IMG/VR virus record: IMGVR_UViG_2802429228_000005
Source: a virus
Taxonomy: Duplodnaviria; Heunggongvirae; Uroviricota; Caudoviricetes
DNA length: 5,154 bases
Reading direction: 5' to 3' (one strand)
The notes beneath the pieces were generated by a model that searched no databases, had not been told where the DNA came from, and saw only the letters and a program-made list of their open reading frames with translations. Shown here one piece after another: positions 2,259-5,154 of the stretch. Positions within the stretch are counted from its first letter, which is position 1. Every line of letters starts with the position of its first letter. The translations under genes and the position numbers were made by a program.

Positions 2259-3299
2259 ATGGCTACATCGACAGTAATTCCTGATGATATCAAAACGCTA
2301 AAATCCGACGTTAGCAAATTAAAAACCGATCAAGGAAGCTACGCAACAAAATCATATGTAGACAGCAAAGATGAAACCGTTGGTGACTGGTCTGCTTCAT
2401 GGTATCAGCAGGTATTGCCAACTAGCGGAGCTATATTTGGGAGAAAACTCCGCTCAACTCACCGGACGGCAGGTGTTGAGGATGCGTATTGCGAACTATA
2501 CCTCAAAAAATGGATAGACAGTCCAGGTAACGCAATGGCGCGCCTTAACCTGAACGATAACGGGACAAACATTTGCTGGGACTTTACCAACCTTTATGGC
2601 GGTACGATGATTTTTCCCGGTGACAGCGGATACCTCAAAATGGGTAACTGCCTTATGTCATACAGCAAGCGTGGAAGTAACGCGCTTATTAAATTTGATT
2701 ACACCGACACATTACAGATCAAATATGCTAATCATGGGTCAACCATGACATTAAACACACAGGGAACCGCTCACGCTGGCGTAACAACTCGACTATGGGG
2801 CAATTCTAGCCGTCCGGTTGTTTATGAAGTTGGCGTAGATGAGGCTCTGTATATGTTCTACGCACAGAAAACTACCAGCAATACCTACGAATTAACGGTT
2901 AACGGCGCGTGCAATGCAAGTGCATTTAATCAAGGCTCTGACCGGGATCTGAAAGACAATATTCAGGTGATAGATAATGCAACCGACCGCATTCGTAAAA
3001 TGAACGGCTATACATACACGCTTAAAGAAAACGGTATGCCTTACGCTGGTGTTATTGCACAAGAAACCCTGGAAGCCATCCCCGAAGCCGTAGGGTCTAT
3101 GATGAAATATCCAGACGGCGGGAGTGGATTAGATGGAGAAGAAGGTGAACGGTATTACACTGTAGATTATTCTGGTGTTACTGGCTTGCTTGTTCAGGTA
3201 GCCAGAGAGTCAGACGACAGAATAACAGCACTGGAAGAAGAAAACGCAGAATTAAGACAAAGATTATCTGCAATTGAGGCGGCGCTTGCGTCTAAATAA
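2259..3299 (+). CDS. Tail fiber / tailspike-like protein (346 aa) with C-terminal intramolecular chaperone auto-processing domain (peptidase S74 type)
   Basis: Strong RBS GAGGAAGGA (2248-2256) ahead of ATG 2259. Residues 227-280 (GSDRDLKDNIQVIDNATDRIRKMNGYTYTLKENGMPYAGVIAQETLEAIPEAV) match the conserved S-D-x-x-L-K-x-N-I ... G-x-I-A-Q-E ... P-E-A-V core of the intramolecular chaperone domain of endosialidases and T5 pb1-type fibers. The C-terminal heptad-like stretch ITALEEENAELRQRLSAIEAALASK is the coiled-coil end usual for that domain. Confidence 0.85.
   Translation: MATSTVIPDDIKTLKSDVSKLKTDQGSYATKSYVDSKDETVGDWSASWYQQVLPTSGAIFGRKLRSTHRTAGVEDAYCELYLKKWIDSPGNAMARLNLNDNGTNICWDFTNLYGGTMIFPGDSGYLKMGNCLMSYSKRGSNALIKFDYTDTLQIKYANHGSTMTLNTQGTAHAGVTTRLWGNSSRPVVYEVGVDEALYMFYAQKTTSNTYELTVNGACNASAFNQGSDRDLKDNIQVIDNATDRIRKMNGYTYTLKENGMPYAGVIAQETLEAIPEAVGSMMKYPDGGSGLDGEEGERYYTVDYSGVTGLLVQVARESDDRITALEEENAELRQRLSAIEAALASK
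2937..3299 (+). other. Predicted intramolecular chaperone (S74) domain; the conserved Ser227 codon (tct 2937-2939) marks the expected autoproteolytic site
   Basis: The domain boundary is inferred from motif onset at G-S-D-R-D-L-K-D-N. In characterised members this module is released after trimer folding. Confidence 0.7.
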
Positions 3300-3341: not shown

Positions 3342-3629
3342 ATGGATATAACACCTTTCCTTCATGCTCTTTGTGCTGTGGCTGCGCAGCTACTGATTGG
3401 TCTTTTTACCGGGAACTGGGCTTACGGAGCGATAGCCGGTTGTACGTTCTTCATTGCGCGTGAACACACCCAGGCAGAATATCGCTGGATTGAAATGTTC
3501 GGGCATGGCAAGCGTATGAATATGCCGTGGTGGGGCGGTTTTGATCCACGTGCATGGGATGTGGCAAGCCTGATGGATTTTGCTGTGCCGGTGGTGGCGT
3601 GTCTGCTGATCTGGATGTTGATCCGTTAA
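3342..3629 (+). CDS. Small hypothetical inner-membrane protein (about 95 aa, 2-3 predicted transmembrane segments); accessory (moron-like) gene
   Basis: The ORF track opens at TTG 3327. ATG 3342 is the more plausible start because AGGA (3333-3336) sits 5 nt upstream; ATG 3336 is also possible. Hydrophobic stretches FLHALCAVAAQLLIGLFTGNWAYGAIAGCTFFIA and VASLMDFAVPVVACLLIWMLI flank a polar W/G/P-rich loop (RWIEMFGHGKRMNMPWWGGFDPRAW). I cannot assign a family. Confidence 0.6.
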   Translation: MDITPFLHALCAVAAQLLIGLFTGNWAYGAIAGCTFFIAREHTQAEYRWIEMFGHGKRMNMPWWGGFDPRAWDVASLMDFAVPVVACLLIWMLIR

Positions 3630-3630
3630 A

Positions 3631-3679
3631 TATAAAAAGTAAAAAGCCGCAGTAACTTGTCATGATAGGATACTGCGGC
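3631..3679 (-). terminator. Rho-independent terminator candidate for the minus-strand dinI-like (and int read-through) transcript
   Basis: A perfect 9-bp inverted repeat, GCCGCAGTA (3646-3654) and TACTGCGGC (3671-3679), encloses a 16-nt loop. Read on the minus strand the stem is followed immediately by TTTTTACTTTTTATA (complement of 3631-3645). On the + strand there is no U-tract after the stem, so it is not an efficient + strand terminator. The loop is longer than typical. Confidence 0.45.
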
Positions 3680-3746
3680 TGGCTGGTTAACTTTCGATAG
3701 TGCGAGTATTGAATGATTTCCAGCCGTTACCGATTTTACGTGTTAA

Positions 3747-3995
3747 TTAGTGAACAAACCACTCGTCAGCAGACTCCCAGGTATCTTTCAGAGTTTCCTG
3801 AACAAAAGTTTTAGCTGAATCTTTATCGGCGGTGCGCGTAACAGAAAGGCCATCGTTGCTGGTGGCTTTTACGATCACCTCTACATCGTCATAACGTTTA
3901 CTGATGCGTCGGGTTAATTCTTCCTTTAACGCATCCACAGCACCGGTTGGCATTTTAGTCATTTTTTCTTTGGCTATGCAGATTTCAATACGCAT
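3747..3995 (-). CDS. dinI: DinI-family protein (82 aa), SOS-inducible RecA modulator homolog
   Basis: The translation [82 protein letters not shown] aligns along its length with E. coli DinI as I recall it (MRIEVTIAK...P.GA.DAL..EL.RRI...LSV...QETWESADDWFV). SD AGAGGGA lies 5 nt upstream of the ATG (minus strand). Two LexA boxes sit in its promoter. Confidence 0.88.
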
Positions 3996-4008
3996 AAAAG
4001 TCCCTCTA

Positions 4009-4028
4009 TACTGTGTTTGTATACAGTG
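4009..4028 (-). promoter_or_regulatory. LexA operator (SOS box), promoter-proximal, overlapping the likely transcription start region of the dinI-like gene
   Basis: The + strand reads TACTGTGTTTGTATACAGTG, with CTGT at 4011-4014, 8 nt, then ACAG at 4023-4026. It matches the gammaproteobacterial LexA consensus TACTGT-N8-ACAGTA at 19 of 20 outer plus core positions. Confidence 0.8.
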
Positions 4029-4030
4029 TT

Positions 4031-4060
4031 ATTTTTAACTGTATGGATAAACAGTGTCAA
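4031..4060 (-). promoter_or_regulatory. Sigma70-type promoter for the dinI-like gene
   Basis: On the minus strand: a perfect -35 TTGACA (complement of 4055-4060), a 17-18 bp spacer, then TAAAAAT (complement of 4031-4037) as the -10. The ATG follows 36 nt downstream. The integrase stop codon TGA (4057-4059, minus strand) is embedded in the -35 hexamer. Confidence 0.6.
4037..4056 (-). promoter_or_regulatory. Second LexA operator (SOS box), lying in the spacer between the -35 and -10 of the dinI-like promoter
   Basis: The + strand reads AACTGTATGGATAAACAGTG, with CTGT at 4039-4042, 8 nt, then ACAG at 4051-4054. Its centre is 28 bp from the first box. No other CTGT-N8-ACAG occurrence was found by eye anywhere else in the window. 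Confidence 0.75.
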
Positions 4061-5154
4061 GAGGTCTTATTTCTGCTCTTTTGGAGCTCTTCAAAACGAT
4101 TATGTAAAGATTTCGGATACAGTTCGGTATATACCTGCCATAGCACGTTTAATGAACGATGCCCTGTAACTTGGGCGACTTCCTCAATACTAAAACCAGC
4201 CTCAAATAAGCGACTTGCCCCTTCTCTACGCAAATCATGGTATCGCAGATCTTTAATACCTAATTTGCTTCTTACCCTCTGAAATCCCGCAGTAACAGAA
4301 GTGCTGTTATATGGAAAAATGAATTCCGATTTTTGGGGCTGTCGTTGGACGATATCCCAGGCTTCCCCAAGCAAGGCTACTTTCATGTGGTTGCCTTCCT
4401 TTTTGCGTGGATCTTTCCTGTCTCTTACGAGTATAGATTTTTGTTCCTGGTCGAGATCTTCCCATCGTAACCGGCATACTTCTCCGATTCGCATACAGGA
4501 CCACACAGAAAATTTGAGGATATCAACGAACGGAATTTTTGAGCATTTATGTGTAGATCGTTGTTGAAGACCTTCAATGAGCATGTCCAGTTCATCAGAT
4601 GCCGGTCTACGATTACGACGGTTTGATTTACCAATCAAACCAAGTTTAAGTAGATATGGACGAGCACTTTTCGCCGGGTTTGATGTGTAATTAATTCCGT
4701 ATACAGGTTTGGCCGCATCCAGAACACTGCCAAGATAACTAACATCGTGGCTGACTGTTGCTGGACCTGCACCAGCGTTGTTTCTTAGCCTACAATGTTC
4801 AATTACGTCATTTTCTGTCAGTTCGGATAGTTTGATCGCGGAGATGTCACTATCCATAAGCAGTTCCAGCACATATCTTTTAGTACGACCTGCTTTACCT
4901 CCGGCATTTGGGTCATTTAAATATTTGTGTAGTAAGTCACGGACTGTAAGTCCGTCAACTGCATTTGATGATGGAATGCCATATAGATCTAATTCCATCA
5001 CTTTCTGTGTACCCCATGTTTTGGCATGGGCATGTTTAGGGAATGTTTTGCTTTCCCTGTAAGTGATAACACCTTTTTCTTTGATAATCACATTACAGCG
5101 ATAGCGTGGTGTGCCATCGGATTTTAGTCGTTTCTCTATGTTATAGTACGCCAT
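4057..5154 (-). CDS. int: Phage integrase, tyrosine site-specific recombinase (365 aa as read; start codon at the window edge, so the true N-terminus may lie beyond the window)
   Basis: C-terminal catalytic motifs are visible: CMRIGEVCRLRWEDLD (box I Arg), RYHDLRREGASRLFEAG (His-x-x-Arg box II) and VTGHRSLNVLWQVYTELY (His ... catalytic Tyr). The basic N-terminal region is consistent with an arm-binding domain. It is oriented convergently to the fiber genes. Confidence 0.88.
   Translation of the reverse strand: MAYYNIEKRLKSDGTPRYRCNVIIKEKGVITYRESKTFPKHAHAKTWGTQKVMELDLYGIPSSNAVDGLTVRDLLHKYLNDPNAGGKAGRTKRYVLELLMDSDISAIKLSELTENDVIEHCRLRNNAGAGPATVSHDVSYLGSVLDAAKPVYGINYTSNPAKSARPYLLKLGLIGKSNRRNRRPASDELDMLIEGLQQRSTHKCSKIPFVDILKFSVWSCMRIGEVCRLRWEDLDQEQKSILVRDRKDPRKKEGNHMKVALLGEAWDIVQRQPQKSEFIFPYNSTSVTAGFQRVRSKLGIKDLRYHDLRREGASRLFEAGFSIEEVAQVTGHRSLNVLWQVYTELYPKSLHNRFEELQKSRNKTS

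Follow-up and report, generated by a model that had tools for sequence, protein, structure and literature searches.

Between the integrase gene (int) of a tailed phage and a small DinI-like open reading frame (ORF) lie 61 bases that hold two palindromes of the LexA type, and the stop codon of int falls within the −35 hexamer of the promoter predicted for the small gene. This arrangement raises two questions: whether the palindromes are LexA operators that would place the DinI-like gene in the SOS response, and whether the overlap also ties integrase expression to DNA damage. A preliminary description of the locus had proposed both. The two questions were addressed in a 5,154-nt stretch of Caudoviricetes DNA (IMG/VR record IMGVR_UViG_2802429228_000005), called the window throughout and numbered from its first base. 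Minus-strand features are given in descending coordinates.

Prophage setting

The integrase gene occupies one end of the window, which stops at the int start codon:

5154..4057, minus strand: tyrosine integrase gene of the dusA-associated type, 365 aa (ORF and Pfam)

The encoded protein matches the Pfam Phage_integrase domain (E = 7.5e-21). The int–dinI segment has 100% identity to Escherichia phages PhiR40_1, PhiR47_1, and PhiR55_1 and 98% identity to mEp460, and it is also identical in prophages of many E. coli chromosomes. Gene order in E. coli 1517k is J, lom, side tail fiber, small ORFs, dinI-like (convergent), int, and dusA, with an identical int at the prophage end, divergent from dusA and 88 bp away from it. 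The dusA-associated integrase family comprises tyrosine recombinase genes at island ends that are divergent from and adjacent to a dusA gene that has had its 5′ end replaced (Farrugia et al. 2015, PMC4482086). The integrase studied here has the domain, and its identical copy in E. coli 1517k lies beside dusA. Judged by these matches and this gene order, the window represents the int-proximal end of a lambdoid E. coli prophage that resembles mEp460 and is integrated in dusA.

Elsewhere in the window, the side-tail-fiber gene fragment at 109–543 holds 2.2 copies of a 189-bp repeat unit (82% identity), itself composed of 21- and 42-bp sub-repeats, and the repeats code for alanine-, serine-, and lysine-rich ('SETNAK...') segments. 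A 346-aa ORF (2259–3299) encodes a tail-fiber protein whose C-terminal domain is an intramolecular chaperone of the Peptidase_S74 type. The ORF that follows (3342–3629) encodes 95 aa, is hydrophobic, and has no Pfam match.

Predicted promoter and operators

The promoter region of the DinI-like gene contains the following features:

4060..4055, minus strand: −35 hexamer TTGACA, a perfect match (promoter scan)
4059..4057, minus strand: int stop codon TGA, inside the −35 hexamer
4054..4038, minus strand: 17-nt spacer, 16 nt of which are the distal box
4039–4054: exact CTGT-N8-ACAG core, CTGTATGGATAAACAG (motif scan of the window)
4037–4056: putative distal LexA box, 20-mer AACTGTATGGATAAACAGTG (plus strand), with its core at 4039–4054, occupying the −35/−10 spacer
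4037..4031, minus strand: −10 region TAAAAAT (promoter scan and sequence)
4011–4026: exact CTGT-N8-ACAG core, CTGTGTTTGTATACAG (motif scan of the window)
4009–4028: putative proximal LexA box, TACTGTGTTTGTATACAGTG, with its core at 4011–4026, over the predicted start and early 5′ UTR
4006..4001, minus strand: Shine-Dalgarno sequence GAGGGA, 5 nt ahead of the ATG (3995)

Read 5′ to 3′ on the minus strand, the layout is TTGACA CTGTTTATCCATACAG T TAAAAAT AACA CTGTATACAAACACAG TATAGAGGGACTTTT ATG. The preliminary description had called this a consensus promoter of the form TTGACA-N17-TAAAAAT. Its geometry and its perfect −35 stand, but "consensus" is slightly generous for a −10 that matches at four of six positions whether it is taken as TAAAAA (17-nt spacer) or as AAAAAT (18-nt spacer). 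The promoter scan returned TTGACA-18-AAAAAT with 10 of 12 matches. As predicted from these elements, the promoter is near-consensus, with a perfect −35 and an imperfect −10.

The two palindromes lie on either side of the −10 and start 28 bp apart. They had been described as the only such sites in the window, with about 0.08 occurrences expected by chance, and both statements hold: no further exact CTGT-N8-ACAG occurs in the window, and 200 dinucleotide shuffles of it gave a mean of 0.07 and a maximum of one, never two or more. Their placement is also as described, with the distal core filling 16 of the 17 spacer nucleotides and the proximal core (4026..4011) beginning 4 nt past the −10, where it covers the predicted transcription start. 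Both boxes overlap the core promoter or the predicted start of the DinI-like gene, the promoter itself being a prediction.

Scoring with a LexA weight matrix, which the preliminary description had put forward as a check, favors LexA. The matrix was symmetrized and trained on 27 literature sites for E. coli LexA (Lewis 1994; Fernandez de Henestrosa 2000), and its values are approximate. On this approximate scale, the 20-mer at 4037–4056 scores 20.8 bits (heterology index ~5.9) and the 20-mer at 4009–4028 scores 20.1 bits (heterology index ~6.3), versus only 8.3 bits for the next best site in the window. Training sites span 12–26 bits in the same matrix, with the lexA, uvrA, and yebG boxes in a range similar to that of the two boxes studied here. 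Each box agrees with the LexA consensus at 15–16 of 20 positions. The top score over 300 shuffles was 16.2 bits; this value and the shuffle expectation of 0.07 rule out a chance origin of the palindromes. Both sites are genuine-looking LexA (SOS) operators, with scores like those of validated E. coli SOS boxes.

The DinI-like gene and its module

Two features lie downstream of the promoter:

3995..3747, minus strand: DinI-like gene, 82 aa (ORF and Pfam)
3746..3632, minus strand: structured 3′ UTR with an intrinsic terminator (folding)

The 82-aa protein matches the Pfam DinI family (PF06183) with E = 1.1e-19 and 70.9 bits, against a cut-off of 24.2, and aligns over residues 1–81 with the solved E. 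coli DinI (1GHH; E = 3.7e-13). It keeps the C-terminal acidic helix (...TWESADEWF), as in E. coli DinI, and residues E74, A76, D77, W79, and F80 are invariant in the alignment (A1). By these matches the small ORF unambiguously belongs to the DinI family and has the helix through which DinI contacts RecA.

The terminator consists of a 10-bp GC-rich stem (3680..3671 paired with 3654..3645), a 16-nt loop, and then UUUUUACUUUUU. A simple terminator scan returned no match because the hairpin loop of 16 nt is beyond the 8 nt of that scan. The 3′ UTR folds at −30.1 kcal/mol (z = −3.98). It is ~115 nt long, and a second hairpin precedes the terminator. An Rfam scan of the whole window gave no match above noise. 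RefSeq places an 81-bp "capsid protein" pseudogene fragment (record positions 5071–5151; window ~3670–3750) over this 3′ UTR and terminator, which looks like an annotation artifact. A Gifsy-type antirepressor after the dinI-like gene was considered and rejected, as no ORF is present there and the terminator closes the unit.

A megablast search against phages showed that Stx1, Stx2, and other lambdoid phages match the window only from ~3673–3676 to 4060–4065. The shared span comprises the terminator, the dinI-like gene, and the promoter as far as the −35. Since this unit has its own promoter and terminator, has mosaic ends on both sides, and occurs in at least 10 upstream contexts, it qualifies as a self-contained mobile "moron."

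Conservation of the operator arrangement

We surveyed 80 DinI homologs, each from a different GTDB species. At least one strong LexA box was found 13–75 nt before the ATG in 73 of the 80, and in 70 of those 73 a strong box lies 13–34 nt before the ATG. Two boxes were present in 15 of the 80. This two-box form corresponds to an 82-aa prophage-type subclade (at least 56% identity) that includes Escherichia, Shigella, Erwinia, Mixta, and Pantoea; more distant Klebsiella phage homologs have one box each. Spacing between the boxes varies from 24 to 29 bp among two-box homologs, so cooperative binding of two LexA dimers cannot be assumed. The order TTGACA/CTGT, −10, second box, Shine-Dalgarno sequence, and ATG is shared by VT1-Sakai, BP-4795, Stx2c, PhiR12_5, Shigella, Erwinia, Mixta, and Pantoea. 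VT1-Sakai, BP-4795, one Stx2c phage, and PhiR12_5 have the same promoter layout behind unrelated upstream sequence. Among 5426 complete E. coli genomes, at least 1274 carry the 77-bp control region.

An alignment of 13 diverged two-box promoters from Escherichia, Shigella, Erwinia, and Mixta has invariant columns at TTGA-ACTG, in which the −35 runs straight into the first half-site, and at CA, CTG, and CAGT. The distal box keeps its CTG and CA(G) half-sites across genera, and CTG...CAGT of the proximal box is invariant in all 13 promoters. An A-rich −10 is kept at the same place in homologous promoters, and a purine-rich block is kept at the Shine-Dalgarno position in the alignment (A2). The N8 interiors and all sequence 5′ of the −35 are variable. 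An invariant −35 and invariant half-sites amid variable surroundings are what would be expected if selection had acted on a promoter that two LexA dimers occlude.

These data bear on a different reading of the palindromes, in which they are operators of another protein (a phage repressor, Int at arm-type sites, or IHF) or chance occurrences, and the dinI-like gene is expressed only by read-through from int. Sites for recombination proteins are frequent near prophage ends, where this segment lies, although nothing specific points to them here. The attachment site separates int from dusA, 5′ of int, and does not fall between int and dinI; both palindromes agree with the LexA consensus at most positions and score 20–21 bits; the chance expectation is 0.07; and the DinI genes of 73 of 80 species have LexA boxes whatever the context. 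We consider this reading very improbable. The proposal that these are LexA-type operators, at which LexA would occlude the DinI-like promoter, is supported by the scores, by conservation of the half-sites and −35 across genera, and by experimental work on Gifsy and Klebsiella homologs.

Several observations were made alongside the survey. Enterobacterial-type dinI-like genes with LexA boxes occur in records labelled Chryseobacterium sp. and Vagococcus sp. and in metagenome-assembled genomes (MAGs) labelled Saccharibacteria and Wohlfahrtiimonas; these four records are probably contamination or mis-binning. BP-4795 and VT1-Sakai contain TGATGCCCCAT, directly repeated two to four times 20–70 nt 5′ of the −35, between the attachment site and the dinI promoter. 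The repeats, none of which occur in the window, may be arm-type sites for the integrase. PhiR47_1 has three more strong LexA-type boxes at its opposite prophage end, at 167–186, 190–209, and 271–290 (20.7, 19.2, and 16.7 bits), located 3′ of a TTGACA-N17-TATAAT promoter (124–152) and 5′ of annotated PanA/PanT toxin-antitoxin genes. In the circular form of PhiR47_1 they are just across attP from the int start, and mEp460 does not have them. They suggest that this phage group has a second LexA-controlled moron. PhiR47_1 also has a very strong LexA-like palindrome at 6512–6531 (TACTGTTTTTACATACAGTA, 25.4 bits), ~210 nt into the coding sequence annotated as the cI repressor.

Proposed regulation

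The reading we favor, with a probability of roughly 0.88, is that positions 3993–4060 are the control region of a self-contained LexA-repressed moron made up of promoter, dinI-like gene, and terminator, and that the overlap of the int stop codon with the −35 is the joint of this module. In an undamaged lysogen, one LexA dimer would occupy the spacer box and a second the start-site box, and the two would jointly exclude RNA polymerase. DNA damage would lead to RecA-stimulated self-cleavage of LexA, freeing a promoter with a perfect −35 and an A-rich −10. A small DinI-like, RecA-filament-binding protein would then be produced as an SOS function of the prophage.

Multiple LexA boxes over a core promoter, as at lexA, recN, and the colicin genes, are classically associated with tight repression and late induction. 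The spacing here, 28 bp center to center, differs from the 21 bp of lexA and from the overlapping boxes of colicin genes. Two medium-strength operators would be expected to repress basal expression more tightly, and to delay induction more, than the one box of chromosomal dinI. We infer LexA binding, the start site, and this effect of two boxes from the sequence. The obvious guess for the function of the product is that it modulates RecA co-protease activity and hence the timing of induction.

Overlap of int with the −35

The int stop codon does lie within the −35, as had been pointed out, and T4060 is the last base of TCT, the final sense codon of int. The position of the stop is the same in all 51 dusA-int loci retrieved (positions +1 to +3 of the −35). 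In at least nine other upstream contexts of the same promoter, no ORF ends in the −35. Integrase homologs align only as far as residue ~338–361 of 365, so the last few codons form a non-conserved tail. Because the overlap is restricted to the dusA-int lineage, homology breaks at the −35 edge (4060–4065), and the int tail is not conserved, the junction has the marks of a recombination joint. On this sequence pattern, the best explanation for the stop codon within the −35 is that a mobile dinI module was joined there to a dusA-type int, with the −35 of the module supplying the stop.

The preliminary description had proposed that LexA could affect the 3′ end of int transcripts, by a roadblock or altered read-through, which would couple integrase to DNA damage. 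In a more explicit form of this idea, LexA bound at 4037–4056 would halt polymerases finishing int before the stop codon, and the resulting non-stop int mRNA would lead to tmRNA tagging and degradation of Int, so that stable Int would appear only after LexA cleavage. This would be the LacI/O3 mechanism in a prophage integrase. The geometry would permit this: the operator starts 1 nt past the int TGA, and a stalled polymerase would have its active center ~15 nt upstream of the distal box, near 4070–4075, ahead of the stop at 4059..4057. A simple scan (loops up to 8 nt) found no terminator between int and the promoter, and the int/−35 junction is invariant in the 51 loci of the dusA-int lineage. 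There are also precedents. A LacI roadblock at O3 yields truncated lacI mRNA and SsrA tagging (PMC3711431, citing Abo et al. 2000), and a 2026 study reports that DNA-binding proteins can halt RNA polymerase, and trap complexes engaged in transcription and translation, ahead of the stop codon, with trans-translation as the sequel (PMC13584721).

Against this, the overlap is missing from every other context of the same promoter, and it coincides with a mosaic homology boundary, as an accidental joint would. Recurrence would have been a sign of selection, and the stop-in-−35 design is confined to the dusA-int lineage. LexA is, to our knowledge, not an established strong roadblock, and single LexA dimers are easily displaced by trailing polymerases and ribosomes. 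Further LexA control of int was sought by scanning mEp460 and one E. coli lysogen, both 5′ of int and across the gap between int and dusA. The 5′ side of int had no LexA box in either; the mEp460 scan found none of at least 11 bits besides the two dinI boxes, and the lysogen scan found one weak extra LexA-type site (13.6 bits), within a tail-fiber gene. The resemblance to LacI-O3 lies in an operator directly adjoining the 3′ end of a coding sequence, where a blocked polymerase would halt short of the stop codon; it is purely geometric here, and LexA, unlike LacI, is not encoded by the gene that would be blocked. A roadblock on int is therefore unlikely in our judgment, and the proposed coupling of integrase to DNA damage is not supported: the junction is found only with dusA-int and lies at a mosaic joint.

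Implications

The main use of these results is in annotation. In many lambdoid and Stx prophages of E. coli, the DinI-like genes at the prophage end share a promoter that appears to be occluded by LexA at two operators, and conservation of this promoter would place them in the host SOS regulon, independent of prophage induction. The comparative footprint, TTGACA abutting CTGT, could be used to find such promoters. The current view of SOS or phage regulation stays unchanged. If the roadblock were true, it would be a post-initiation SOS switch on integrase, arising from a LexA-controlled moron fused to the end of int; the excision recombinase would build up only after LexA cleavage, a new tie of integrase supply to damage. 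As it stands, this is an ordinary, already-recognized kind of DNA-damage-inducible prophage gene, and the overlap is a lineage-specific junction, not a demonstrated regulatory device.

Comparison with known systems

The author of the preliminary description had not seen such coupling described for this architecture, and the prior record does not bear out a claim of novelty. The GenBank record of mEp460 already annotates the dinI-like promoter. That of VT1-Sakai (AP000400) lists a "putative promoter of H0001 and H0002" together with a LexA "putative SOS box," which is the homolog of the proximal box; the distal box has no annotation there. The literature search turned up no paper that explicitly describes tandem boxes at the dinI genes of E. 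coli prophages, and the O157 papers found mention chromosomal dinI alone. The prior record accordingly consists of these GenBank annotations and the work on Gifsy and Klebsiella. The element looks real and functional by its sequence, and it is not novel.

The closest known system is H0001 of VT1-Sakai/Sp15, also present in BP-4795, Stx2c phages, and CP-1639, whose protein is 95% identical to the DinI-like protein. Its promoter likewise has TTGACA, a spacer box, TAAAAAT, and then a box 13 nt from the ATG, and the gene is at the prophage end, past the tail-fiber genes. It differs in that the promoter comes after the attachment site in yehV, not after int, and in that the distal box is weaker (15.4 bits, with a CTGG half-site).

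The dinI homologs of Gifsy-1, -2, and -3 lead LexA-controlled operons (dinI-gfoA/gftA-irsA) in Salmonella (Lemire et al. 2011, PMC3121763). Swapping out the LexA-box region removes their mitomycin-C-dependent activation, lexA3 blocks it, and non-polar deletion of the dinI homologs causes no detectable change in induction (PMC3121763). Nalidixic acid raises their expression 4.6- to 23-fold (PMC8072944). Each Gifsy gene has one LexA box, 19 nt ahead of its ATG (PMC8072944), whereas the prophage studied here has two, and in Gifsy a downstream antirepressor gene triggers induction, whereas the unit here stops at the terminator right after dinI.

Chromosomal dinI of E. coli K-12, Salmonella, and Klebsiella is of the same family (49% identity) and also has a LexA box over the start, confirmed by ChIP in Klebsiella (PMC10907235). 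The E. coli promoter is similarly squeezed, directly behind the pyrC stop codon (72-bp gap), but it has one box, ACCTGTATAAATAACCAGTA, and the gene is not phage-borne. Salmonella chromosomal dinI has a second, very weak box (HI 17.6; PMC8072944). Among other SOS genes with multiple boxes, Salmonella recN has three and lexA two (PMC8072944). LexA-repressed prophage-borne dinI genes are already known, and the tandem-box detail of the E. coli-type subclade is a small refinement.
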